DNA of 64,000 nt from a virus (Duplodnaviria > Heunggongvirae > Uroviricota > Caudoviricetes): IMG/VR virus record IMGVR_UViG_3300029747_000004, one strand, 5' to 3'. The translations under genes were made by a program, and so were the position numbers. The notes under the pieces were generated by a model that saw nothing but the letters and a program-made list of their open reading frames with translations, searched no databases and was not told where the DNA came from. Positions 7,139 to 62,323 of the stretch are shown piece by piece. The stretch's first letter is position 1. Each line of letters opens with the position of its first letter.

Positions 7139-8077
7139 TTATATAGCTAATTCGTCTTTGAATCTAAAAACAAATCCATGAGTATATGGTCTTTTATAGT
7201 TGCACACTTTCGAGATCATTTTATGTCCAATCCCAGTTATTCTTTCGGCATCTCTTGCAGATAAATATTCTGCAATAAAATTCATATCTAAATCATATTG
7301 TATAACCGATTTTGTGGGTGGTCTATATCTTGTTGCGTTTGGAAAAATAATATTTTTTGTCAAATCCTTCCATATACGTTTAGCCCGAATGTCTTTAATT
7401 GTATTTACAGAAATTCCATAATCATTTGCGATATCTTTATCAAATTCAGAATTTAACATTCTCTCTATAATATTTTCAACGTCATCTTTGCTTAATTTAA
7501 TTGATGGTTTCTTTCTTTTAATAAAGTTCATATCTTTTGTAAGTTCAACATATGAAGTTTTTTCATATATCCCATATATAGTACAGGCACTTACATTAAA
7601 CATTTCCGCTATATTAACTATTGGAATATCAGTATTTACAAGATAATCGCAAACATCAACAAATTGTTCAAGCGAAAATCCACGTTTGCAATTTTGCAAA
7701 TCTTCAATTGTGGTGTAATTGGTAGGAGTTTTTGAATTTATTTTATTATGATTATAAACACATATACCGTTAGCAACATAACAATCTATCCAATATTGCT
7801 CTCTTTCAAAGATATAGTCTCTATCTCCAACAACATTTTCTATAATTAAAAAATCAAAATTATCTTGTCCGTACTTATTCCACGCATTTTGCAAATGCAA
7901 ATTATGATGTCTATCATTGTATAAATCCCAAACATGTTGCCTCCATCTTCCATATATATCTACAGAAGAACCAATATATACACTACAATTTGCTAAATTC
8001 TTAATTAAATACACACCTGAAATAACTTCTCCACTAAATCTAAAAAACTTTTTTGACATAACAATAACCTCCAACAT
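7139..8077 (-). CDS. GIY-YIG homing endonuclease
   Basis: GVYLIKNLANCSVYIGSSVDIYGRWRQHV = GIY...YIG...R motif. Confidence 0.65.
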   Translation of the reverse strand: MLEVIVMSKKFFRFSGEVISGVYLIKNLANCSVYIGSSVDIYGRWRQHVWDLYNDRHHNLHLQNAWNKYGQDNFDFLIIENVVGDRDYIFEREQYWIDCYVANGICVYNHNKINSKTPTNYTTIEDLQNCKRGFSLEQFVDVCDYLVNTDIPIVNIAEMFNVSACTIYGIYEKTSYVELTKDMNFIKRKKPSIKLSKDDVENIIERMLNSEFDKDIANDYGISVNTIKDIRAKRIWKDLTKNIIFPNATRYRPPTKSVIQYDLDMNFIAEYLSARDAERITGIGHKMISKVCNYKRPYTHGFVFRFKDELAI

Positions 8078-8101
8078 ATTTCAATTCAAATAAAAAACAA
8101 C

Positions 8102-11658: not shown

Positions 11659-12390
11659 TCATTTTGTATTGTCTACATTGTTTTCGCCATTTCTACCGAT
11701 AGCAAATTTCTGTGTTTTGTTATATTTTTTATTACATTCTTGGCACCTGCAAGTTTTTGTATCCTTACTTGTTACAATAAATTCTTGACCACAATCTATA
11801 CAAACTACGACTCTTTTTGTATGTTTATGATATATCGAACAATAGTCACAATACTTACGTTTTTTTCTATGCTTGGGCTTCTTTGACGCATCCTTTTTAT
11901 CACGTTGTAACATATTTGTTTCTTTTTCAAAATAAGCACCGCATTTTTGACATTGTAAAATATTTTCATCTCCATTATCAAATTTATCTTTAAACAATTC
12001 AATTGACTTTTGTATTCTATTTTTATTTTTTGTTTCTAACATAGAGTTGGTTCGTTTTATAACACCAACATCTGTAATATTAAATGATTCACCACCTGGA
12101 GAAATATTGTACCCATAATTTGAATTAGTTGTATTAAATAAAGCGATCAATCTAATTTCCCAAACTTTTGCCTCATTTTCTGTTAAATTTTTTGACCAAA
12201 TAATATGCTCGAAATTATCCCATCCATATTTTTGAATAGCACTCCAAAATAGTCTCTGTTGAATATATCCCTTGCCATTTTGCCACCTTCTATTTGGATC
12301 ATCTCCATAGGCCGTAATTCCAATATATGCCTTATTATTAATTATATTTCTATGAATATAAACACAATAATTATCACCTATTTCCATCAT
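11659..12390 (-). CDS. GIY-YIG homing endonuclease with C-terminal zinc fingers
   Basis: YCVYIHRNIINNKAYIGITA...RRWQNGKGY; Cys pairs at C-terminus. Confidence 0.6.
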   Translation of the reverse strand: MMEIGDNYCVYIHRNIINNKAYIGITAYGDDPNRRWQNGKGYIQQRLFWSAIQKYGWDNFEHIIWSKNLTENEAKVWEIRLIALFNTTNSNYGYNISPGGESFNITDVGVIKRTNSMLETKNKNRIQKSIELFKDKFDNGDENILQCQKCGAYFEKETNMLQRDKKDASKKPKHRKKRKYCDYCSIYHKHTKRVVVCIDCGQEFIVTSKDTKTCRCQECNKKYNKTQKFAIGRNGENNVDNTK

Positions 12391-19757: not shown

Positions 19758-20105
19758 TTATGGTGCGTGCGGCGCAGCCAACTTAAATTCCTCTACGGCT
19801 TGTTCATTATAAGTCAATATTCTTTGTTTCCTACCCTCAATACAAAATACTTTTTTATTGATAAAACCATGAGCTAAAAGCTTGTTTATAGACTTTTGTA
19901 TAGTTGCCTGTGTAGTAAAGCATTTTTCAGCAAGATATTTATTTGATGCAAAAAATGTTTGGCCTGAATATTCGTATGAATGAACAAGGCTAATAATACG
20001 CGCATCAACTAAAGTAAATTGCTCTTTTGTAGGTTTATCAATATTATATTTTATCATTGCGTCAAGTATCTCTTCGTCAAATGGAGAATGCTTATAGTCT
20101 TTCAT
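19758..20105 (-). CDS. HTH protein resembling phage replisome-organiser N-terminal domain (paralogue of 48308..48622)
   Basis: FFASNKYLAEKCFTTQATIQKSINKLLAHGFI parallels YLYFASNMNGYSIALSPIAIEEAIGISENTYRAAFKELLEYGYL; adjacent repeat array. Confidence 0.45.
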   Translation of the reverse strand: MKDYKHSPFDEEILDAMIKYNIDKPTKEQFTLVDARIISLVHSYEYSGQTFFASNKYLAEKCFTTQATIQKSINKLLAHGFINKKVFCIEGRKQRILTYNEQAVEEFKLAAPHAP

Positions 20106-20109
20106 TCAT

Positions 20110-20340
20110 CTACACCTTCTTCATAGTTAAAAAGTATATTTGATTTAAATATCTTGATTGTACTCTGTGACGTTCACCATTAATATACTGATTTTTCTTG
20201 GATATACAAAGTTTATTAATTGATTTTTGTGTAAGCGCATGACCTGCATTTGATATAGCGCAGGAATACCGATGTTCATGCACAATACTCATAATTATTA
20301 CGTCAGATCCATTTTGTTTGTACAAGCATAGCGTCATCAA
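20110..20340 (-). CDS. small HTH-like protein
   Basis: ALTQKSINKL segment resembles the HTH of the neighbouring 115-aa protein. Confidence 0.3.
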   Translation of the reverse strand: MMTLCLYKQNGSDVIIMSIVHEHRYSCAISNAGHALTQKSINKLCISKKNQYINGERHRVQSRYLNQIYFLTMKKV

Positions 20341-20499
20341 ATCTAGAATTCTTATACGGACTCTTTACCAGGTTAATTTCTCCTTTTCATTTTGTACTAC
20401 CATAGGCGCTGTAATTATATCACAGGATTTGGCGCTTGTCAATATAGACTTGAGTGTAATGTTTTTGAATGTAAAATCGTTTTTTGTGGCTTGCCTTGG

Positions 20500-20662
20500 G
20501 GATTTTACCTATCAGGAGTTAAAGCGGCTAATTTCTTCAAAAACGTAGATTATTACAGTAAATTTTGTATTTGTGTCCATAGCACAAAATATAGGCTTGA
20601 GTTAACGGCGCTCTATAGGATTTTACCTGTTTGGTGCAAAATCCGTTAATTTCTCTGAAAAT
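20500..20662. repeat. two ~45-bp imperfect direct repeats (GGATTTTACCT...TAATTTCT)
   Basis: 20500-20545 versus 20618-20662 read directly. Confidence 0.5.
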
Positions 20663-21199
20663 AATACAATAGAAAATTCATGCTGTAGACAGGTTGAAAG
20701 GTGGTGCTGGTAGATAAGTGACAGCATTTTACTAGTGGTTTTATGAATATTTACATTTTTATGAAAACGAATTCAAGATTTTTTCGTGATTATTTTTTCA
20801 GGCTGTAATTTTATATTGTTGAAAATATCAATGTGCTGTTGATGTTTTTGCAGGTGCTTGTATTTTTCAATTTTTATGTTTGTTTGTGAAAATGTTAATT
20901 TTTATGAATAAAATTTTATAAAAATAATAATTGTTCGTTGTTACTTTACGATAACAAAAACGAGCATTTTGAGGGTTTTTGAAGGAATTTGAGTGCTGAA
21001 TTGTTTTTACGTTGAAAATCCAAGTTTGATATAAATTTATAGTACGCATTTTTCAGTTAGTATGTAAAAGAACCACCTACATAAAAATGTATAAAAAATC
21101 ATAAAATCAATAGTTTTATGCACCCTAACGCCTGTTTTATGCAAAAAAATGTATAAAATATGCAATTAAAATAAATTTGAATTTATCCGAATTATTGAT

Positions 21200-21960
21200 A
21201 TAATAATAACTGTCCAAAGGACAAGCGACAACAGCGGCGCAAGCCGAAAAAGTGGCGCAAGCCGAAAAAGTGGCGCAAGCCTTGCAAGTCCTAGGACGCG
21301 GAAACAATCGTTCCTTGAAAACTTTACACGGAGGTAACATTCCGACAAAAGTGACAGCTTTGTGCCTAAGGTCATAGGCGTATGGATAGATAGGCGTAAA
21401 TTTACCCACTTGCAAACCATGCAGGCAGGATAAATGAGAACCCGAAGAATTACATATGCTAGCAGGGCTATGGTACGTAAAAGGGACTTGCTTATAAACA
21501 GTCCGCAACCGGATAAAACCGGCTTTAGCTAGGGTTTCCCTTACCGACGTGCGATATAGGACTATGTTATACCTGTACAGTGTTTGCACTTAGGCGAATA
21601 CGCAGGGTTACGGGGCAAATCCGCAATGAAAAGTCCCTAATGCGATACTGTTATTCATGTTAAATCATGTTAGCAAGTCGTTACCTTATACAGTGATAAC
21701 GTGCGTTTCGCGGACGCACAGGAAGGATTAAAGCAACGTCCAAATAATCCATAGAAGAATACTATAATATCAATGTTAAAGAGTTAAGCCACAACCTTAA
21801 AATGACTGCGCTCATGGCATACTCATGGGGAAGATGGCTGTACCATGTATAGGTTGAAGAGCGACGTAAAACCGTCTAAAAGTATCCGCTGATTTAGGAC
21901 TATGCGAATGGCAATCGAGTAACTTCTGCTCGTCCTTATATAGTATTCTTTATGCGACTA
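21200..21960 (+). ncRNA. candidate structured non-coding RNA / long 5' leader (GC-elevated, ORF-free)
   Basis: ~760 nt with clearly higher GC than flanks, no credible ORF, recurring GGACTATG words, several hairpins including TTTACAGCATA/TATGCTGTAAA at 21967-22005. Confidence 0.3.
21233..21290. repeat. tandem 18-bp repeat (AAGCCGAAAAAGTGGCGC) x ~3
   Basis: Direct reading. Confidence 0.7.
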
Positions 21961-43418: not shown

Positions 43419-44564
43419 ATGTTAGAAATAACAGATGATGTCATCATTGAGGAGCAAGAAGAAAAACAAGTAGATGATGAAAAATATGTAGAGATAAGAG
43501 AACCATATGGGTTTATTTACATAACTACTAATATTGTAAATGGTAAACGATATTTGGGGCAAAAAACATTTGATAGAAAATGGAAAGATTACATCGGTAG
43601 TGGCATTGCATTTAAGGCGGCAGTTAAAAAATACGGAAAAGAAAATTTTATAAGAAATATTGTTTTTATATGTTATTCTGTGGAAGAATTAAATCAGATA
43701 GAGTTTGAACTTAGTGTATTTTTAAACGTTGTTGAGTCTGATAATTGGTATAATATGGTTTATGGTGGTGGGACTACATCGGGGATAACTGTCTCTGAAA
43801 AGACACGAAAGAAGTTGAGTGAGGCACGTAGAAACAATACTATACTACATCCAGAATATGATGCTTACCACAGTCAAAAAATGATTGAATTTCATAAAAA
43901 ACACCCTGAAGCGAAAGAAAATAGTAGTGACAGGCTTAAACAGCTATGGCAAAATTCAGATTTTATTATAAAAATGGAGCAACACCGCGAAGGGTATTGG
44001 AGTGACGAGAACAATCATACAAAACGTAGAGAAATATTAAAAGAAATATGGAAGGATCCAGATGTTAAGGAGATTAGACTTCGTGGATTAAGAGAGTGGA
44101 ATGCACAGTCAAATAACCACGATATTAGAAGTGAATTGTCAAAACGCAACTGGGATAAGCCAGGTTATAGAGAAGCACAAATTTTAAGAAATACTGGAAG
44201 CGGAAATCCAATGTATGGTGTTCGTAGATATGGGATTGATAGCACAAATTTTATACCAGTATATTGTATAGAAATGCACAGGATATTCTGGGGAGCAACT
44301 CAAGCAGAGAATGAACTACATATTAAAGGTTCTGATATAGCGCAATGCTGCAAGGGAAGGCGTGGGCATAAGTCTGCTGGGAAGTATCCAGTTACAGGTG
44401 AGAAACTACAATGGAAGTATGTTTATGATCAAGCTAGTAATGATGGAACTATCATCAAAGGTGCAATAACACTTGGCTATATAACAGAAGAAGAAGTTAA
44501 TAATTATTTGGATAGTTTAAGACAGAAAGGAAATGATATAAATGGCACTATGGAAGAAGAATGA
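43419..44564 (+). CDS. GIY-YIG homing endonuclease (I-TevI-like, NUMOD-type repeats)
   Basis: YGFIYITTNIVNGKRYLGQ ... YIGSG; GITVSEKTRKKLSEARRNN-like repeats. Confidence 0.75.
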   Translation: MLEITDDVIIEEQEEKQVDDEKYVEIREPYGFIYITTNIVNGKRYLGQKTFDRKWKDYIGSGIAFKAAVKKYGKENFIRNIVFICYSVEELNQIEFELSVFLNVVESDNWYNMVYGGGTTSGITVSEKTRKKLSEARRNNTILHPEYDAYHSQKMIEFHKKHPEAKENSSDRLKQLWQNSDFIIKMEQHREGYWSDENNHTKRREILKEIWKDPDVKEIRLRGLREWNAQSNNHDIRSELSKRNWDKPGYREAQILRNTGSGNPMYGVRRYGIDSTNFIPVYCIEMHRIFWGATQAENELHIKGSDIAQCCKGRRGHKSAGKYPVTGEKLQWKYVYDQASNDGTIIKGAITLGYITEEEVNNYLDSLRQKGNDINGTMEEE

Positions 44565-50771: not shown

Positions 50772-50794
50772 CATTAGAAAGTATTGACAAATAA

Positions 50795-50823
50795 TGGAAA
50801 TCATGATATAATCAATATTGTAC
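50795..50823 (+). promoter_or_regulatory. sigma70-type promoter (TTGACA-17-TATAAT) feeding tRNA cluster 1; duplicated at 54600
   Basis: ttgacaaataatggaaatcatgatataat, near-identical to 54600-54628. Confidence 0.5.
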
Positions 50824-50954: not shown

Positions 50955-51104
50955 GAACCCGTAGCTCAGTTAGTAGAGCATCGGACTTGGGATATTAACC
51001 TAGCGGTTAGGCAGGTGGCTGTTAACCACCCAAGGGAGGTTCGACCCCTTCATATCCCGCCATTAATCCGAGGGTCGTGGGAGCAAAGCCCACCGGGTTT
51101 ACCA
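50955..51104 (+). tRNA. tRNA-Lys(UUU)-like gene interrupted between anticodon nt 34/35 by a complete tRNA-Asn gene; atypical D-loop (AGTTAGTAGA) and T-loop (AGCAAAG)
   Basis: Acceptor GAACCCG/CGGGTTT, D-stem GCTC/GAGC, anticodon stem TCGGA/TCCGA, T-stem GTGGG/CCCAC, ACCA end; after removing 50989-51062 the loop reads CTTTTAA. Confidence 0.4.
50989..51062 (+). tRNA. tRNA-Asn(GUU), nested inside the anticodon loop of the tRNA-Lys-like gene
   Basis: Acceptor GGGATAT/ATATCCC plus GCCA, D-stem CCTA/TAGG, anticodon arm GGTGG-CTGTTAA-CCACC, T-arm GGAGG-TTCGACC-CCTTC. Confidence 0.6.
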
Positions 51105-51360
51105 GCAGAGAATTAAGCTACGGCTTCTCTGAATTCCCAACATACCGCCATGCGTGGGTGAGAAGAGAAGAAGGCGGCCGAAGCTCAATGGGAGAATAGA
51201 GCATTTTAATCTTAGCACGGCCCGTGCGCGGGACATCTTTCGAGATGAAAAAAGGGTATTGCGGGGAAGCTCCCCGCACAATGCGGGATTGATGTAATGA
51301 TAGCATAAGTGCCTTCCAAGCATTTTGTGCCAGTTTGAATCTGGTATCTCGCTCCAATAT

Positions 51361-51527
51361 AGTCGTGTAGCCAAGTGGTAAGGCACGGGACTTCGTAGAA
51401 TAGTTTAAAAGTAAAACACTCTATCGAAGGATAGACCTTTACTGGATAACAAAGAGATGTTTGTGCAAGACAAACTTCTACGTCCATGACTCCCGGATCG
51501 TTGGTTCGAACCCAACCACGACTGCCA
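51361..51527 (+). tRNA. tRNA-Gln(UUG) gene interrupted between nt 34/35 by a 93-nt class-II tRNA-like insert
   Basis: Acceptor AGTCGTG/CACGACT plus GCCA, D-loop AAGTGGTAA, anticodon stem CGGGA/TCCCG, T-arm GTTGG-TTCGAAC-CCAAC; loop after removing insert = CTTTGAC. Confidence 0.45.
51394..51486 (+). tRNA. nested class-II (long variable arm) tRNA-like gene, anticodon uncertain (loop CGAAGGA)
   Basis: Acceptor CGTAGAA/TTCTACG plus TCCA, D-arm GTTT-AAAAGTA-AAAC, anticodon stem TCTAT/ATAGA, variable arm CTTT..AAAG, T-arm GTTTG-TGCAAGA-CAAAC. Confidence 0.4.
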
Positions 51528-51559: not shown

Positions 51560-52327
51560 TTGAGTAATATGACAGATGGAAATGTTGGCAAGAGAATCGG
51601 AATTTATGATGTACTATATGAATGTGATGAAAAGCGTAACGATGGGCATAAGTTATATCATGTAAGGTGTGTATTTTGTGGTTGGGAAACTGACATGCAA
51701 CTCAGTGATGCAAAGAGAGCTGCTAAATGTACACATTACAATAAATTAACACAAGAACAAAAAGATGCTTGGTACGATAAAAATAAAAAGCAGTGTTTGT
51801 ATTGCGGAAAAGACATTCCATTTAATGAAAGATGTCAAAGTGAATATGTAATAAAAAATTTTTGTAATCAAAGTTGCGCTGCATCTTATAACAACAAGGG
51901 AGTTAGAAGAAATCACAAAGATGGTAGGGACTATAATGTAAAATATTGTTTAAATTGTGGAAAAGAGATCTCATATAAAAATAAATATTGCTCTTCTAAG
52001 TGCCTGCAAGATTATCGGCATAAGCAATACATAGAACGGTGGAAGAATAGCATTGAAGACGGAATAGTGGGAGAATATCAAATTTCAGACCACATTCGAA
52101 GATATTTGTTTGAAAAATATGATAATAGATGCTCAATATGTGGATGGAACAAAATTAATGAATTTACTGGAAATGTACCGCTTGAAGTCCATCATATAGA
52201 CGGAAATTACACTAATAATACAGAAAGCAATCTGCAATTGCTTTGTCCAAACTGCCATTCCCTGACGAAAACCTACAAAGCAGGAAACATAGGAAGTGGC
52301 AGAAAAGGACGTCAAAAATATAATTAA
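51560..52327 (+). CDS. HNH homing endonuclease (paralogue of 53833..54597)
   Basis: CSICGW...EVHHIDGNYTNNTESNLQLLCPNCH; shares N-terminal block with 53833 product. Confidence 0.7.
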   Translation: MSNMTDGNVGKRIGIYDVLYECDEKRNDGHKLYHVRCVFCGWETDMQLSDAKRAAKCTHYNKLTQEQKDAWYDKNKKQCLYCGKDIPFNERCQSEYVIKNFCNQSCAASYNNKGVRRNHKDGRDYNVKYCLNCGKEISYKNKYCSSKCLQDYRHKQYIERWKNSIEDGIVGEYQISDHIRRYLFEKYDNRCSICGWNKINEFTGNVPLEVHHIDGNYTNNTESNLQLLCPNCHSLTKTYKAGNIGSGRKGRQKYN

Positions 52328-52760: not shown

Positions 52761-53296
52761 GAGGGTTGGTGTATCCTGCGGAACTACTGCAAACACCGAG
52801 GCAACAGGCAATGTCTCGCTATGAAAATAGCAAAGATGTGGAACCGGATTTTACTAAAGCATAGTTCAGGACAATATGCGGAGTTAGTCGGAATTAAATG
52901 AGGAAACCCTGAGATCTACACATCAACCTGTTATGGGGGTAGGCTCCGAGAGCTAGCAGGAGAGCAAGGGCCTGTGGAAGTTTGGTTTGACTCCAGATGC
53001 CTCCACCACAACCGCAAGATGTGTTATGCGGTATAAAAATGACGAAACATCCTTTAAGGGTAGGGGATCTGAAATGTGAATCCAGCCACTTAAAGTGAGT
53101 CCTATAGCCCATGATACTAACGGACTATGCGTGAATGGGTGATTTATCACTCTAAAAAGTATCTGAAACGCTAGGCAAATTTGTTCGATGATAGTAAGCG
53201 CTACGCTACTATATAGTGTTTACCGGAGAATCCCTGTTGGTTATCGCTTATCCACAAGGTAGCTAGGATTTAATCTGAAAGAAAAAGCGAATTTAT
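52761..53296 (+). ncRNA. ORF-free GC-elevated block between tRNAs: candidate large structured ncRNA(s) (for example ROOL/GOLLD-type, group I intron, or tRNA-like modules ending in CCACCA)
   Basis: ~530 nt with no credible ORF on either strand, GC well above genome average, multiple GC helices, tRNA-like 3' end GCCTCCACCA at ~52985-53007. Confidence 0.3.
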
Positions 53297-53448
53297 TGTC
53301 CACTAGCTCAATTTGGTGAGAGCCACGGCCTTGATGGATTCATTTCGGGATAGTGTAGTTCAAATCTATGATCCATCACAAATAAGCCGTAAGCCCTAAC
53401 AAGGCATAGTCTGGGTTCGAGGCCCAGGTGGACTACCAGCCATGCTGA
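53297..53448 (+). tRNA. tRNA-like gene (loop CTT/ATAA if spliced, anticodon UAU?) interrupted after nt 34 by a ~50-nt acceptor/T-arm minihelix insert; encoded ACCA
   Basis: Acceptor TGTCCAC/GTGGACT, D-arm GCTC-AATTTGGTGA-GAGC, anticodon stem ACGGC/GCCGT, T-arm CTGGG-TTCGAGG-CCCAG; insert GATGGAT...ATCCATC with TTCAAAT loop. Confidence 0.35.
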
Positions 53449-53832: not shown

Positions 53833-54597
53833 GTGTATTACAATATGAGAGTGGACCCGAATGCACACATAGGAGAACAATATGGAATATATGTAATTAA
53901 AAGCGTATCTGAAGAAAAAGACAAGTATGGACATTATATTTATAATGGTGTATGTAGTGAATGCGGATATGTTCATTCTGCAAAGTTGGATTATTTTAAA
54001 CGGAAACAGATCAATACATGTACTCACTTTAGTAAATTAACACAAGATCAGAAAGACGCCTGGTACGAAAAGAATAAAAAAGTTTGCTTATGTTGTGGGG
54101 AATATATTCCAATGGGCAATAAAACATTCTTTGAATATAAAATATCGAGATTTTGTAATCAAAATTGTGGCGCAATTTTCGCAAACAAAAATACAAAAAA
54201 GAAAACATATTATTGTCAAAAATGTGGTAAACCGATTGGATATGGCCATGATCAGTGTGGCAATAAACAGTTATGCGATGATTGCAACCCTTTTCGAGTT
54301 GATTGGGGCTTTATTACATACGGAGAAATGAAAAGCAGAAGAAAATATCAAGTTAATAGTAGAATCAGAGAAATTGCAAGAACATTATATAAAAACTCTG
54401 GAAGACCACAGATGTGTATGAATTGTGGGTATGATAAGCACTATGAAATTTGTCATATCAAAGGAATATCAACTCACTCAGATGATACATTTATATCAGA
54501 AATTAATAACATTGATAATTTGATTGCGCTATGTCCAAATTGCCACTGGGAATTCGACCACGGTTTGTTAGACTTGCAAGCGATAACACAATCTTAA
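53833..54597 (+). CDS. HNH homing endonuclease (paralogue of 51560..52327)
   Basis: CMNCGYDKHYEICHIKG...LIALCPNCHWEFDHG. Confidence 0.7.
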   Translation: MYYNMRVDPNAHIGEQYGIYVIKSVSEEKDKYGHYIYNGVCSECGYVHSAKLDYFKRKQINTCTHFSKLTQDQKDAWYEKNKKVCLCCGEYIPMGNKTFFEYKISRFCNQNCGAIFANKNTKKKTYYCQKCGKPIGYGHDQCGNKQLCDDCNPFRVDWGFITYGEMKSRRKYQVNSRIREIARTLYKNSGRPQMCMNCGYDKHYEICHIKGISTHSDDTFISEINNIDNLIALCPNCHWEFDHGLLDLQAITQS

Positions 54598-54864: not shown

Positions 54865-54992
54865 GCCGGTGGTAGCTTAACTGGATAGAGCGCGTACATC
54901 ACACAACGTGAAATGAAAATTTCGCGCACAGCAATTGAACAAGATAGGGCTGTTAACCCCGAGGTTGTTGGTTCGAGTCCAACACACCGGCA
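54865..54992 (+). tRNA. long tRNA-like gene (~125 nt) with internal GNRA-capped hairpin insert (CGTGAAAT-GAAA-ATTTCGCG); anticodon unresolved (GGGCTGTTAACCCC suggests GUU)
   Basis: Acceptor CCGGTGG/ACACCGG, D-arm GCTT-AACTGGATA-GAGC, T-arm GTTGG-TTCGAGT-CCAAC. Confidence 0.35.
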
Positions 54993-55275
54993 CAAGAGAA
55001 TAAAAGGCACTCACAGCAAATTTATATTAGAAGATTATAATGTGGTTTTATAGTAAGATAATAAGTGCCTTGATTATTGAAATGATAGAGAGACTAGCAG
55101 CAACTTTATTTAAAAAAGATATAAGTTATTATTGGTTCTGCCAGAAATGATATTTATGGTCTCTCGAAAAAAAATAAAATCTCCAAAGACATAAACAGCA
55201 ATCTTATATAACGACCTGACTTTTAACCAGACTACGTAAATGTGTGTCTTGAGATTTTAGAAATAAAATCAGATA

Positions 55276-56844
55276 ATGGAGGAAAGAGCAATGGAATTTA
55301 TGAACGCAGTAAAGCAGACTCTAAACAATGAATACAATATGTCCATCACTGAGAACGGAGCTGTTGGATTTAGAACTACTGGCAAGGAACTACTTGATCT
55401 TAATTTTGCGGTTGCTTCTCTTCGTAAGATGAGTGATGAGGAAGTAACTAAGAGATTTATGAAAGCATTTTGTGAGAATAAGATGCTGGCTATGCGTTGG
55501 TTGTTTTATGCTAGAGATGCAAGACAGGGGATCGGTGAGCGCAGACTATTTAGGGTTGTTATGAAACATCTTGTAGAATCTAATCCTGAAATGGTTATCC
55601 CTGTTATCAATCTGATTCCTGAATACGGTAGGTATGATGATTTGTGGTGTCTACTTGACAACGAGGAATCTGCAAAAGTTATATATCAGATTGTAGATAA
55701 ACAGCTTAAAGAAGATTGGGATAATATGAGTACTGGTAAGCCCATTTCTCTCACAGCCAAGTGGATGCCGTCAATTAACGCATCCTCTGAAAAGACTAAG
55801 GAATATGGTAAGAAGCTCTGCAAGGCACTTCACATGTCCGAACGTGAATATCGCAAGGCTCTCAGCAAGCTTCGTAAGTATCTCGATGTCGTTGAAGTTA
55901 AGATGTCCAACAAGGATTGGTCTGAAATCAAGTATGAAACAGTTCCTTCTCGTGCAAATCTTATCTATAACAGCGCATTCCTCAGAAATGATGAAGTACG
56001 TCGTAGGGAATATCTTGGAAAGCTTGAAAAAGGAGAAACGAAGATTAATGCGTCAACGCTTTTCCCCCATGATATTGTTCATAAATATGCTATTCACTAT
56101 GGGTGGAAATGTAGTCTAAATCAGAAGGACGCAACTATTGAGGCTCTGTGGAGGGCTCTGCCAGATACTGTAAACGGTTGCAGTAACACTATCGTTGTTG
56201 CTGATGGTTCTGGTAGCATGATAACTCAGGTTGACCGTAGTTCCAGTGTGACGGCACTTGAGGTTGCAAACGCACTTGCGATTTATTTTGCAGAACATTC
56301 TTCTGGTCAGTTTAAGGACAAGTACATTACTTTCTCTGAACGTCCACAAATCGTTGATTTCAGTAATGCCACTTCACTCCATGATAAGCTGCAGATTGCA
56401 CTGACACATGATGAGTGTGCGAATACCAATATTGAGAAGGTATTTGATCTGATTCTTGATACTGCGATTAAGAATAGAATGAAGCAGGAAAATCTTCCTC
56501 AGAATATTCTGATTATCTCAGATCAGGAATTTGATAGATGCGCTTCCTGTGGAAATAATAGATCATCGTGGGATTTTAAGAAACCGAACCAGAGGCTGTT
56601 CGATGTGATTGCTCAGAAGTATGCTAATGCAGGATACTCAATCCCAAGGTTAGTATTCTGGAACGTTAATAGTCGAACTGGCACAATCCCTGTAAAGGAA
56701 AATGAACTTGGTGTAGCACTTGTTAGCGGATTCTCTGTTAACATCGCCAAGATGGTTTTGAGCAACAAGCTTGATCCTTATGAGTGCCTACTCGAAACTC
56801 TGAACTCTGAGCGCTATGCTCCAATTGAAGCTGCGCTGAGTTAA
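55276..56844 (+). CDS. rsr: Ro60/Rsr orthologue (TROVE domain plus vWA domain with MIDAS)
   Basis: 522 aa; N-terminal helical region with LFYARDARQGIGERRLF; C-terminal VVADGSGSM (DxSxS MIDAS), ITFSE, ILIISDQEF, RLVFWNVNSRTG...GFSVN colinear with human Ro60 LLAVDVSASM ... VAFSDE ... FIVFTDNETF ... KLIVCGMTSNG...GFDTG. Confidence 0.65.
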   Translation: MEERAMEFMNAVKQTLNNEYNMSITENGAVGFRTTGKELLDLNFAVASLRKMSDEEVTKRFMKAFCENKMLAMRWLFYARDARQGIGERRLFRVVMKHLVESNPEMVIPVINLIPEYGRYDDLWCLLDNEESAKVIYQIVDKQLKEDWDNMSTGKPISLTAKWMPSINASSEKTKEYGKKLCKALHMSEREYRKALSKLRKYLDVVEVKMSNKDWSEIKYETVPSRANLIYNSAFLRNDEVRRREYLGKLEKGETKINASTLFPHDIVHKYAIHYGWKCSLNQKDATIEALWRALPDTVNGCSNTIVVADGSGSMITQVDRSSSVTALEVANALAIYFAEHSSGQFKDKYITFSERPQIVDFSNATSLHDKLQIALTHDECANTNIEKVFDLILDTAIKNRMKQENLPQNILIISDQEFDRCASCGNNRSSWDFKKPNQRLFDVIAQKYANAGYSIPRLVFWNVNSRTGTIPVKENELGVALVSGFSVNIAKMVLSNKLDPYECLLETLNSERYAPIEAALS

Positions 56845-57081: not shown

Positions 57082-57203
57082 GGCCATGTAGCCCAATTGG
57101 AAGAGGCAACAGACCGTCGATAGCCAGAGCGTAGCGAGGTCATCACTTGCATCGACGACCATTAAAATCTGTACAGGTATGGGTTCGAATCCCATTATGG
57201 CCA
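57082..57203 (+). ncRNA. tRNA-like RNA (~120 nt) with a ~50-nt hairpin (CGTCGAT...ATCGACG) in place of/inside the anticodon loop; Y-RNA/YrlA-like or intron-containing tRNA candidate
   Basis: Acceptor GGCCATG/TATGGCC, D-arm GCC-AATTGGAAG-GGC, stem ACAGA/TCTGT, T-arm ATGGG-TTCGAAT-CCCAT. Confidence 0.35.
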
Positions 57204-57361
57204 AAGTAGCAATATCAACAACCTCCACGTGGTGCTACTTGGGTAATGCTAATAGTTGATAGGCGCGTAATGGTGCTGGACTGGCCTGATTGGGGAGAGT
57301 CGTTTCGAATAATCTTCTGTGTGGAGAAGATAAAATACCAATCACCACACATTTATATTAT

Positions 57362-61552: not shown

Positions 61553-62323
61553 ATGGGGAGAGGTTGGGAAGATTTAATAGGTCAAAGATTTGGCAGATTA
61601 ATTGTATTAGAACGTGTAAATGATTACATTTCTCCTAAAGGAAGGCATATTCCGCAATGGAGGTGCATTTGTGATTGTGGGGAAGAGTGCATCGTAACCA
61701 GCAATAATTTAAAAAAGAAAAATGGCACAAAGTCGTGTGGGTGTATTAGACGCGAAAATGCTGCTATTATATCTAAAAAAACACGACATAAAATATTAAA
61801 GTATGACATGTCAAATGAATTTGGAATAGGATATTTATCTAATACAGGCAATCCATTTTACTTTGACGAGGAAGATTTTGACAAAATTAAAGATTATTGT
61901 TGGTATGAATGTGTTACCTGCAGTGGGCATCATGACGTTCGAGCATGGAGCAAAGACGAGAAGAAAGCAATTTTGTTGCATCAATTGATAACTGGAAAGA
62001 AAAATATAGATCATAAAAACCGCAATCCTTTGGATAATAGAAAAATAAATCTAAGAGATGCAACACCATCACAACAAGTACAAAACCAACCCGTAAGAAA
62101 AACAAACACTAGTGGTTTTATTGGAGTACGATTTTGTAAGAACATACAGAAATGGCGAGCTAGGATAGTCATCAATTATAAAGAGATTAATCTTGGATGT
62201 TTTATAAATAAAGATGACGCAATTCGTGCTAGGCTTAAAGCAGAAGCAGAGTACTTTGGTGAATTTGCTCCGCAACGTAATCTATTTGAAGAATACGGAA
62301 TTCAGACAATACAAAATGAATGA
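61553..62323 (+). CDS. HNH homing endonuclease with C-terminal AP2 DNA-binding domain
   Basis: HKNRNPLDNRKINLR (HNH core) and GFIGVRFCKNIQKWRARIVINYKEINLGCFINKDDAIRARLKAEAEYFGEFA (AP2). Confidence 0.7.
   Translation: MGRGWEDLIGQRFGRLIVLERVNDYISPKGRHIPQWRCICDCGEECIVTSNNLKKKNGTKSCGCIRRENAAIISKKTRHKILKYDMSNEFGIGYLSNTGNPFYFDEEDFDKIKDYCWYECVTCSGHHDVRAWSKDEKKAILLHQLITGKKNIDHKNRNPLDNRKINLRDATPSQQVQNQPVRKTNTSGFIGVRFCKNIQKWRARIVINYKEINLGCFINKDDAIRARLKAEAEYFGEFAPQRNLFEEYGIQTIQNE

Follow-up and report, generated by a model that had tools for sequence, protein, structure and literature searches.

In the current view, self-splicing group I introns are the sole interruptions of bacterial and phage tRNA genes, and protein-dependent tRNA splicing is regarded as archaeal and eukaryal. 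Here we describe a tRNA-Gln(UUG) gene of 167 nt on the plus strand (positions 51361-51527) of a 64,000-nt stretch from a Caudoviricetes virus, IMG/VR record IMGVR_UViG_3300029747_000004; this whole stretch is called the window below. The gene is split between tRNA positions 34 and 35 by a 93-nt insert (51394-51486). The interpretation of the insert as a nested, intron-like mimic of a tRNA is well supported. We give about even weight to the full proposal, namely that the anticodon loop of a functional phage tRNA-Gln(UUG) gene houses this element as an intron-like tRNA mimic, which would be spliced out by RNase P, a 3' nuclease and a ligase. The proposal builds on the observed anatomy of the unit, on a rule by which such inserts end in NCCA, on covariation of the two outer halves, on the presence or absence of the insert in relatives and on a ligase gene of the same phage.

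Comparison with described systems

The Lak megaphages, reported in 2019, have tRNAs with "enigmatic" introns, one of which "itself may encode a tRNA"; no mechanism is known for them (PMC6784885). The intron sequences are identical across cohorts whose phage genomes differ (PMC6784885). By our reading of Table S6 of that report (PMC6784885), each intron contains a 7-bp stem and a TTCGAAT-type T arm, with its 3' end 1-2 nt from the 3' splice site. Like the inserts described here, the Lak introns are short, non-group-I insertions in the anticodon loop of a phage tRNA, with a tRNA-like stem and a T arm ending at the 3' splice site. They differ in that they lie at about 36/37, have no CCA and begin with an additional 5' hairpin and an A-rich linker, after which the tRNA-like part follows, whereas both ends of the inserts described here are tRNA-like termini, CCA included, and their sites range from 32/33 to 35/36. 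The lineages are also different: the phage studied here has a genome of about 156 kb and its nearest cultured relatives are Bacillus phages, while the Lak phages are 540-kb Prevotella phages. Judged from their sequences, the Lak introns are the closest precedent, with a related but distinct design.

Group I introns in the anticodon loops of bacterial and phage tRNAs are longer than 200 nt. The inserts described here measure 47-93 nt, and their 5' exon does not always end in U. Features in common with group I introns, such as the one between U34 and A35 of tRNA-Leu(UAA) (PMC3984707), are the anticodon-loop site and the presence of homing-endonuclease genes nearby, and the interrupted Leu(UAA) genes of two related phages (L006 and L008) break at 34/35, as group I tRNA-Leu(UAA) introns do. 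The bulge-helix-bulge (BHB) introns of archaea and eukaryotes, which are processed by EndA or TSEN together with RtcB or Trl1, are likewise short, placed in the anticodon loop and dependent on removal by proteins and on a ligase (PMC4090602, PMC3400036). However, their canonical site is 37/38 and their processing leaves ends with a cyclic phosphate and a 5'-OH, in contrast to the 3'-OH and 5'-phosphate ends predicted here, in a bacterial and viral setting.

Polycistronic and dimeric tRNA precursors of phages, of the T4 Pro-Ser type, are resolved into single tRNAs by RNase P and 3' trimming. Our proposal invokes these enzymes as well, but the T4-type precursors are tandem and the present ones are nested, and because release of the inner molecule breaks the outer tRNA, a nested arrangement requires a ligation step. 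In T4, Pnkp and the phage ligase Rnl1 act on a tRNA broken beside the wobble base by PrrC, and the ligase reseals it. That break is inflicted by host defense, whereas the break considered here would be programmed by the structure of the gene; the ligase there is Rnl1 and the candidate here is of the Rnl5 type, and no Pnkp was found here. Full-text searches of the literature on nested tRNAs, tRNA-like introns and splicing by RNase P and ligase in phages returned no proposed mechanism.

Anatomy of the interrupted tRNA-Gln(UUG) gene

The gene, called unit B below, consists of the following parts:

51361-51393, plus strand: outer 5' part, AGTCGTG TA GCC AAGTGGTAA GGC A CGGGA CTT; the 5' half of tRNA-Gln(UUG), positions 1-34, with the acceptor 5' strand, the D arm, the 5' strand of the anticodon stem and C32 U33 U34
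51394-51486, plus strand: insert of 93 nt, CGTAGAA...TTCTACG T CCA
51487-51527, plus strand: outer 3' part, TGAC TCCCG GATC GTTGG TTCGAAC CCAAC CACGACT G CCA; the 3' half of tRNA-Gln(UUG), positions 35-76, with U35 G36 A37 C38, the 3' strand of the anticodon stem, the variable loop and the T arm, and ending with the acceptor 3' strand, G73 and an encoded CCA

The terminal CCA of the outer tRNA is not encoded in some alleles. None of the programs called a single ordinary tRNA at this place. ARAGORN with default settings made no call on the unit, and the Rfam tRNA model (RF00005) did not match it even at E<=10. With introns allowed, ARAGORN reported a split gene, a 74-nt tRNA with a 93-nt intron, at exactly the coordinates of unit B, but it set the boundary one base off, so that the anticodon was read as UCG. 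When exactly 51394-51486 was removed, so that the cut ran from the first stem base through the CCA, ARAGORN returned tRNA-Gln(ttg) with the loop CUUUGAC, and only with this segment removed did the cloverleaf have an anticodon loop of 7 nt with U33 and the anticodon UUG. Uninterrupted versions, which the original prediction had suggested looking for in related phages, were found in L024, L003 and L143; these intact Gln(UUG) genes have the same D arm and CTTTGAC loop, and their alignment with unit B opens a gap between CTT and TGAC. The boundary between 34 and 35 is thus fixed by the 7-bp stem that starts at C51394 and the NCCA that ends at A51486, by the ARAGORN call after excision and by the alignment with intact relatives. 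The junctions CTT/C...CCA/TGAC and the anticodon UUG are confirmed, as is the earlier reading of a tRNA-Gln(UUG) interrupted at 34/35 by a 93-nt insert.

The alignment with related phages showed no target-site duplication at the insert; mobility, which the original prediction had proposed to test by this criterion, found no support. The predicted minimum free energy (MFE) fold of the 167-nt precursor (-46.4 kcal/mol, z = -2.3) retains the outer acceptor, D and T helices and three of the five anticodon-stem pairs, together with the acceptor stem and T arm of the insert. A Gln unit with a 51-nt insert in the related phage L179 scored 53 bits with the Rfam tRNA model. Unit B is confirmed as real and is statistically secure.

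Conservation of the outer tRNA

An exact 24-mer from the insert retrieved six IMG/VR contigs, and further copies came from the European Nucleotide Archive (ENA) and from Logan assemblies. Samples with this phage include ERR912085, the ERZ272xxxxx set and IMG 3300045988. The 167-nt unit is present in at least 10 independent assemblies from these three sources (IMG/VR, ENA and Logan), and the collected assemblies hold seven distinct alleles of the outer tRNA-Gln. In the spliced alignment of these alleles, the 20 cloverleaf pairs were standard pairs in 140 of 140 cells. Compensatory changes on both sides were seen at four outer pairs, three of which bridge the two halves (two in the acceptor stem and one in the anticodon stem). 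None of 500 shuffles reached these pairing values, and shifting the partners abolished the pairing. The canonical stems ascribed earlier to the outer gene thus hold across all seven alleles, and because all pairs are kept and compensatory changes bridge the insert, the two flanks are conserved jointly, as the original prediction required.

Within the stretches that we examined, each phage of the group had one Gln(UUG) gene, either nested or intact. L179 carries its 51-nt insert in Gln(UUG) at the same 34/35 site. The outer sequence is identical across alleles only close to the insert. Separately, L015 (4371-4458) and L181 (8338-8425) have an intact tRNA-Gln(UUG) of 88 nt with a long variable arm, which is unusual for tRNA-Gln.

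When the tRNA region was compared by BLAST with 50,697 GenBank phages, nothing but a trivial match to tRNA-Lys came up. The nearest cultured relatives are Bacillus phages, with a terminase identity of 26%, and with an identity this low the phage has no cultured relative in a stricter sense. An exact-sequence look-up of the dCMP deaminase returned no record.

The insert and its homologues

Within the insert we distinguished the following elements:

51394-51400, plus strand: acceptor 5' strand, CGTAGAA
51403-51417, plus strand: D-like region
51420-51435, plus strand: hairpin UCUAUC-GAAG-GAUAGA, a 6-bp stem with a GAAG tetraloop
51459-51475, plus strand: T arm GUUUG-UGCAAGA-CAAAC, abutting the acceptor 3' strand, with an atypical loop (G55)
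51476-51482, plus strand: acceptor 3' strand, TTCTACG
51483-51486, plus strand: tail UCCA, discriminator U and CCA

The 7-bp acceptor stem CGTAGAA/TTCTACG, the TCCA and the T arm with the TGCAAGA loop had all been recognized in the original prediction, and they stand: they are present in the sequence, and the homologues keep an acceptor stem, a T arm and NCCA. The insert fold has z = -3.5. As in a tRNA, the insert has a 7-bp acceptor stem, a discriminator and CCA, and its T arm lies next to the acceptor 3' strand. The remainder of the proposed class II tRNA-like structure fared less well. In place of an anticodon arm with a 7-nt loop there is the GAAG tetraloop; the putative variable arm can form by CUUU/AAAG pairing, yet it is absent from the 77-nt and 51-nt homologues; and the cloverleaf fold (-15.3 kcal/mol) is 7 kcal/mol worse than the MFE fold (-22.3 kcal/mol), which pairs the D region with the "variable arm". 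Thus, the class II label is not secure, while the tRNA top half, that is, the acceptor stem and T arm with NCCA, is the secure part of the insert.

The insert is 92-93/93 identical across six outer alleles, which differ among themselves at up to about 9 of 72 sites. Diverged homologues were found as 77-nt inserts in Arg(UCU) of L015 and L080 and as the 51-nt insert in Gln(UUG) of L179. The 93-, 77- and 51-nt inserts have a D-loop-like motif in common (AAAAGTAAAAC, AAAGGTAAGAT and AAGTAAGAT). The acceptor stems of the 77- and 51-nt homologues are wholly different yet fully complementary, and the T arm and ACCA are kept. The inserts of 47-51 nt consist of an acceptor stem, a linker, a T arm and the tail, with little else. 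A 17-mer from the T arm of the 93-nt insert had 35 matches, all random, among 185,579 reference genomes, and the insert was not seen in the reference bacterial genomes, prophages included. An identity as a YrlA-like Y RNA was considered and rejected; the ends of the insert make an acceptor stem and not a Ro-binding stem.

Sister units and the architecture of excisable inserts

ARAGORN in intron mode found more interrupted tRNAs in the same 6.5-kb array, and the window holds four interrupted units (A, B, C and E). Further designs were found in relatives:

50955-51104, plus strand: unit A, outer tRNA-Lys(UUU) (50955-50988 and 51063-51104) with a complete tRNA-Asn(GUU) as insert (50989-51062), ending in GCCA; break 34/35
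51361-51527, plus strand: unit B, outer tRNA-Gln(UUG) with the 93-nt insert 51394-51486, ending in UCCA; break 34/35
53297-53438, plus strand: unit C, class-II-type tRNA with UAU after excision and a 49-nt minihelix (53333-53381), ending in ACAA; break 34/35
57082-57203, plus strand: unit E, tRNA(UAA) with a 47-nt minihelix (57115-57161), ending in ACCA; break 32/33
Relatives L006 and L008: Leu(UAA) with a 47-nt insert, ending in ACAA; break 34/35
Relatives: Lys(UUU) with a 50-nt insert; break 35/36
Relatives: Arg(UCU) with a 77-nt insert; break 35/36
Relatives: Asn(GUU) with a 71-nt insert; break 35/36
Relatives: Gln(UUG) with a 51-nt insert; break 34/35

The inner tRNA-Asn of unit A scored 49 bits with the Rfam tRNA model. 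The tRNA finders call no other standard tRNA-Asn(GUU) in the window; a GUU loop also occurs in the atypical unit D. Since the insert of unit A is a complete tRNA-Asn, its release by normal tRNA processing is required. The outer tRNA-Lys of this unit has the odd T loop AGCAAAG. The T loop of the unit B insert (UGCAAGA, 51464-51470) resembles it, both reading N-G-C-A-A with G replacing U55, and the atypical loop thus belongs to the outer molecule in unit A and to the inner molecule in unit B. The site of unit C holds a different 50-nt insert, ending in GCCA, in L011 and L014. Spliced unit C would combine a long variable arm of the class II type with the anticodon UAU and a U1-U72 mismatch, which is an unusual combination, and relatives carry an ordinary 78-nt tRNA-Ile(UAU) instead. 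Unit E scored 41 bits with the Rfam tRNA model, and the syntenic slot in relatives holds uninterrupted alleles.

We wrote a scanner that took 7/7-bp stems with an abutting 5-bp T stem and a 7-nt loop, allowed any 4-nt tail, cut out everything between the first stem base and the last tail base, both included, and asked ARAGORN whether the rejoined flanks formed a tRNA with the junction in the anticodon loop. The main run covered the window and the first 19 related loci. From 879 stem/T-arm candidates it returned 30 excisable inserts, with the tails NCCA (25 inserts) and NCAA (5 inserts) and no other. A looser repeat gave two calls with another tail (ACA), both of which were one-base register shifts of the ACAA insert of unit C, in the window and in the identical locus L028. 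As a negative control we used 1.0 Mb of mostly unrelated IMG/VR loci, collected with a degenerate pattern of the 93-nt family (more than 119 mostly random matches); here 16,715 candidates led to four calls, of which three were true relatives and one was spurious. A degenerate minihelix pattern returned only loci that were already known. An 870-nt "intron" reported by ARAGORN in the tRNA-Leu of L179 had no group I match and was treated as an artifact.

The first base of every excisable insert is the start of its 7-bp stem, and its end lies 4 nt past the stem, with CCA or CAA, so that the ends correspond to the termini of a mature tRNA. Insert lengths span 47-93 nt. The cores are unrelated to one another, and every insert keeps an acceptor stem, a T arm and a tail. 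In each of the nine designs, the anticodon loop restored by excision has 7 nt, with U33 and a purine at position 37, and its anticodon is a sensible one (UUG, UUU, UAA, UAU, UCU or GUU). It had been noted originally that units A and B share an insertion point directly after a CTT. Both do break at 34/35, but this is not universal, as other units break at 32/33 or 35/36. Because CTT is simply C32-U33-U34 of tRNAs with U34 and other break sites occur, the feature common to the units is the architecture of the insert and not the CTT site. The mechanism shared with the Lys/Asn unit that had been proposed is favored by this common design.

The tRNAs of the array are packed 0-4 nt apart, and 9 of 11 tRNA-type 3' ends encode CCA. 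The four tRNA genes that default ARAGORN missed or miscalled are the only decoders of Gln, Lys, UAA and UAU called in the window; if the inserts are indeed excised, standard annotation misses such phage tRNAs. Upstream of the cluster with units A and B there is a predicted promoter:

50784-50812, plus strand: predicted sigma-70-type promoter with perfect consensus (TTGACA, 17 nt, TG-TATAAT), by consensus match only

Proposed route of excision and the phage ligase

An acceptor/T-arm minihelix with NCCA is the part of a tRNA that is recognized by RNase P and by tRNA 3'-end enzymes, and RNase P and RNase Z leave 3'-OH and 5'-phosphate ends. Excision at the RNA level, the enzymes that would cut, the ligase that would join and the reason for the arrangement are what we infer in this section. 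The tRNA cluster would be transcribed as a polycistronic tRNA precursor, in which the insert would fold as a tRNA top half, the acceptor stem being stacked on the T arm and followed by NCCA. RNase P would cut at the 5' end of the insert, between U51393 and C51394, and leave a 3'-OH on the outer U34. A tRNA 3'-end endonuclease, possibly an enzyme of the RNase Z/BN type measuring past the CCA, would cut after A51486, the end of the CCA of the insert, and leave a 5'-phosphate on U35. The outer halves would be held together by pairing of the acceptor and anticodon stems while an ATP-dependent RNA ligase sealed the 3'-OH/5'-phosphate nick, giving the 74-nt tRNA with the loop CUUUGAC. Ends of this kind are the ones that ATP-dependent RNA ligases join, and the Rnl5-type ligase of the phage is the candidate for the sealing step.

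Among the 40 open reading frames (ORFs) of the window we found no RNA ligase, Pnkp, RtcB, RNase Z or EndA. Contig L028 represents the window's own phage: over 18,710 nt its identity with the window is 100%, and it continues beyond the window end. It has a gene at about 66,346 in window coordinates (2.3 kb past the window end) with matches to PF21189 (OB fold) and PF09414 (RNA ligase). Full-length orthologues occur in conserved synteny in every related phage examined whose fetched stretch reaches that position; those of L026 and L181 lie at 20033-21406 and 20296-21477. The orthologue in L181 is 54% identical to the N-terminal fragment of the window phage and matches the Naegleria RNA ligase 5COT with E = 4.6e-27; the orthologues in L181, L026 and L184 match the DraRnl model TIGR02306 below its curated cut-off (91 bits versus 151). 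With an N-terminal OB fold followed by a nucleotidyltransferase domain and with homology to NgrRnl and DraRnl, the predicted protein has the features of an Rnl5-type ligase. Rnl5 enzymes seal 3'-OH/5'-PO4 ends (PMC7261155, PMC4408790), and their physiological role has been described as uncharted (PMC7261155, PMC4408790, PMC5397189).

Close to the ligase gene (L028 21056-21554; L184 18795-21548) there is a conserved module that resembles an RNA repair or processing cassette. It comprises an ExoX-like exonuclease, in L184 also an RNase_T/DEDD exonuclease, and a nucleotidyltransferase of the RNA-repair family RlaP (PF10127).

A broader claim is that phages have a third, previously undescribed kind of tRNA splicing, in which the intron mimics a tRNA or its top half, the end-processing enzymes of tRNA serve as endonucleases and an Rnl5-type ligase joins the exons, the same logic explaining the Lak introns. 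We put this forward tentatively, as a possibility that falls short of an even chance. If true, an intron that borrows the tRNA maturation machinery by resembling the end of a tRNA would be a new splicing route, Rnl5 ligases would have a physiological substrate and the introns of the Lak megaphages would have an explanation. With a 7-bp stem, a T arm and NCCA in an anticodon loop, the design is a simple one. It lends itself to direct testing and might be turned into an engineered switch by which a tRNA comes to depend on a ligase.

As to the reason for the arrangement, we can only speculate that an insert in the anticodon loop protects the gene from the homing endonucleases of the tRNA array, as group I introns do; another possibility is that it makes the tRNA dependent on phage functions. 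The near-invariant insert, together with outer identity confined to its vicinity, would fit spread by gene conversion, which is a speculative reading of the sequences. Equally speculatively, the insert may have arisen when a mature tRNA was ligated into a nicked anticodon loop, which would agree with insert ends that correspond to mature tRNA termini down to the CCA. The interrupted tRNAs and their break sites overlap with known targets of anticodon nucleases (Lys UUU, Gln UUG and Asn GUU).

Weighing of the alternatives

Several observations weigh against splicing of unit B by tRNA end-processing enzymes and the Rnl5-type ligase. CCA inhibits RNase Z in Bacillus-type hosts, where CCA-bearing precursors are trimmed by exonucleases, so that no enzyme is assured for the 3' cut; an enzyme that cuts precisely after CCA is known in some bacteria. 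The NCAA tails suit RNase P and CCA recognition less well, and neither ARAGORN nor the Rfam tRNA model recognized the 93-nt insert as a tRNA. Relatives in which no NCCA-type insert was found, such as L024, have the ligase gene too. The spliced junction expected from excision is GGGACUU-UGACUCCCG in RNA (AAGGCACGGGACTTTGACTCCCGGATCGTTGG as a k-mer), and a search with a 26-mer of the junction had no match in IMG/VR and a single one in JGI metagenomes, an unrelated intact tRNA-Gln; these searches thus revealed neither an exact intact orthologue nor a spliced complementary DNA. Finally, Rnl5 ligases have been characterized on nicked duplexes and not on nicks in anticodon loops (PMC5397189).

Some of these points would fit removal of the insert by a different pathway, for instance another nuclease with RtcB or an RNA-catalyzed step, in which the tRNA-like shape would serve folding or recognition and not RNase P and RNase Z. 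The uncertain enzyme for a cut after CCA speaks for such a pathway, as does the fact that Rnl5 is not known to seal loop nicks (PMC5397189). The Lak introns point the same way: their tRNA-like element abuts the 3' splice site alone, with an additional hairpin on the 5' side, so that RNase P by itself cannot set the Lak 5' site. There are also HDV-like (hepatitis delta virus-like) ribozyme signals elsewhere in the same tRNA array. However, searches in and near unit B revealed neither RtcB nor an EndA-like nuclease nor a ribozyme motif, bulge-helix-bulge geometry is absent and both ends of the insert correspond strictly to mature tRNA termini, CCA included, for which tRNA end processing is the simplest reading; we regard a different pathway as unlikely, though still credible. 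It is rather unlikely, in our view, that the outer tRNA is only a carrier, comparable to a natural tRNA scaffold, whose halves serve as leader and trailer of the inner tRNA-like RNA (tRNA-Asn in unit A) and are discarded unligated. The greater conservation of the insert relative to the outer tRNA would agree with a carrier role, as would unit A, where the inner tRNA is canonical and the outer one has the odd T loop, and a 93-nt RNA that ends in CCA might serve some function by itself. A carrier would have no need, however, of the restorable loop with U33, purine 37 and a sensible anticodon that all nine designs retain, and the compensatory change in the anticodon stem would be needless. Moreover, the nested Gln(UUG) is the only one in the examined array, and the 47-51-nt minihelix inserts contain little besides processing signals.

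That tRNA-Gln is a dead gene, inactivated by a tRNA-derived mobile DNA element or by a retro-inserted copy of a mature tRNA and never spliced, appears improbable. All 20 outer pairs are intact in the seven alleles, four of them with compensatory changes, and a diverged phage has a different insert at the same site of the same tRNA; the examined arrays hold no second Gln(UUG), there is no target-site duplication and the window encodes no reverse transcriptase. Set against this are the mature tRNA termini with CCA, which fit ligation of an RNA into a nicked anticodon loop followed by reverse transcription, the near-identical insert within diverged outer alleles that are identical only near it, which resembles recent spread with co-conversion, and the HNH and GIY-YIG genes in the tRNA array. 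An origin by retro-insertion of a mature tRNA could hold even for a functional gene. Chance resemblance or an assembly artifact, to which only the failure of the default tRNA finders would point, is extremely improbable given an identical unit in at least 10 independent assemblies from three sources and a scanner background of about one false call per Mb. The nested, intron-like tRNA mimic in a functional tRNA-Gln(UUG) is the reading that we prefer.

Other readings were also considered and rejected. A group I intron or its remnant was dismissed on the length of 93 nt, the lack of a P1-P9 core and the lack of a match to Rfam RF00028 at the gathering threshold or at E<=10. A BHB intron was dismissed because the junctions are single strands of 3 and 8 nt around a 7-bp stem and no EndA-type nuclease is among the 40 ORFs of the window. 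Excision at the DNA level was rejected, there being no repeats at the junctions, and the tRNA-like loci of Eustigmatophyte mitochondria are unrelated.

Surroundings of the tRNA array

Other features of the window and of its relatives were noted as follows:

51560-52327, 53833-54597, 61553-62323, 43419-44564 and 11659-12390, and by eye 622-1542 and 7139-8077: free-standing ORFs resembling HNH/GIY-YIG homing endonucleases
57204-57279, plus strand: weak matches to HDV-like ribozymes, RF02682 (27.3 bits, E = 0.058) and RF00094 (26.3 bits)
53183-53294, plus strand: drum RNA (Rfam RF02958, 59 bits), ending 2 nt before unit C; also in L179 at 7976-8091
55276-56844, plus strand: 522-aa protein with DUF2828, DUF7788 and a weak VWA match, phrog_850 "RNA-binding protein" (E = 4e-136), inside the tRNA array
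54865-54993, plus strand: second class of odd tRNA-like elements; also L015 5824-6223, L016 9329-9688, L020 9291-9677 and L024 9425-9684
13335-16088, minus strand: 917-aa ORF, Pfam RdRP PF05183 (E = 1e-14), with the fold of single-subunit RNA polymerases of the YonO/crAss type
51105-51282, plus strand: 178-nt spacer between unit A and tRNA-Gly

Two of the homing-endonuclease-like ORFs lie inside the tRNA array, and one of them starts 33 nt after unit B; this HNH gene is absent from relatives that still carry the insert. The HDV-like segment starts one base after the discriminator A57203 of unit E, which encodes no CCA. It is kept downstream of the syntenic Leu(UAA) slot in relatives and looks like a "theta"-type ribozyme that would cut the 3' end of the tRNA. 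The spacer 51105-51282 contains a D-arm-like GCTC...GAGC and the hairpin GCGGGG AAGC TCCCCGC; its start is conserved in L005 and L006, its fold has z = -1.9 and it had no Rfam match.

The drum RNA is an orphan structured RNA that has been reported to associate with a nearby protein gene (PMC5737381), and in the window it is found 2 kb upstream of the gene for the DUF2828/VWA "RNA-binding protein". The DUF2828 protein is possibly Ro60/TROVE-like and has thousands of homologues on phage contigs of 150-177 kb. In the second class of tRNA-like elements, about 45 conserved nt (CGTACATCA.C.AACGTGAAATGAAAATTTCRCGYACAGCAA; the motif ACAGCAA recurs) lie between the D and anticodon arms, and there is no acceptor-like stem or CCA. 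In all phages examined, these elements form a cluster immediately upstream of the DUF2828 gene, and they might be Y-RNA-like partners of its protein.

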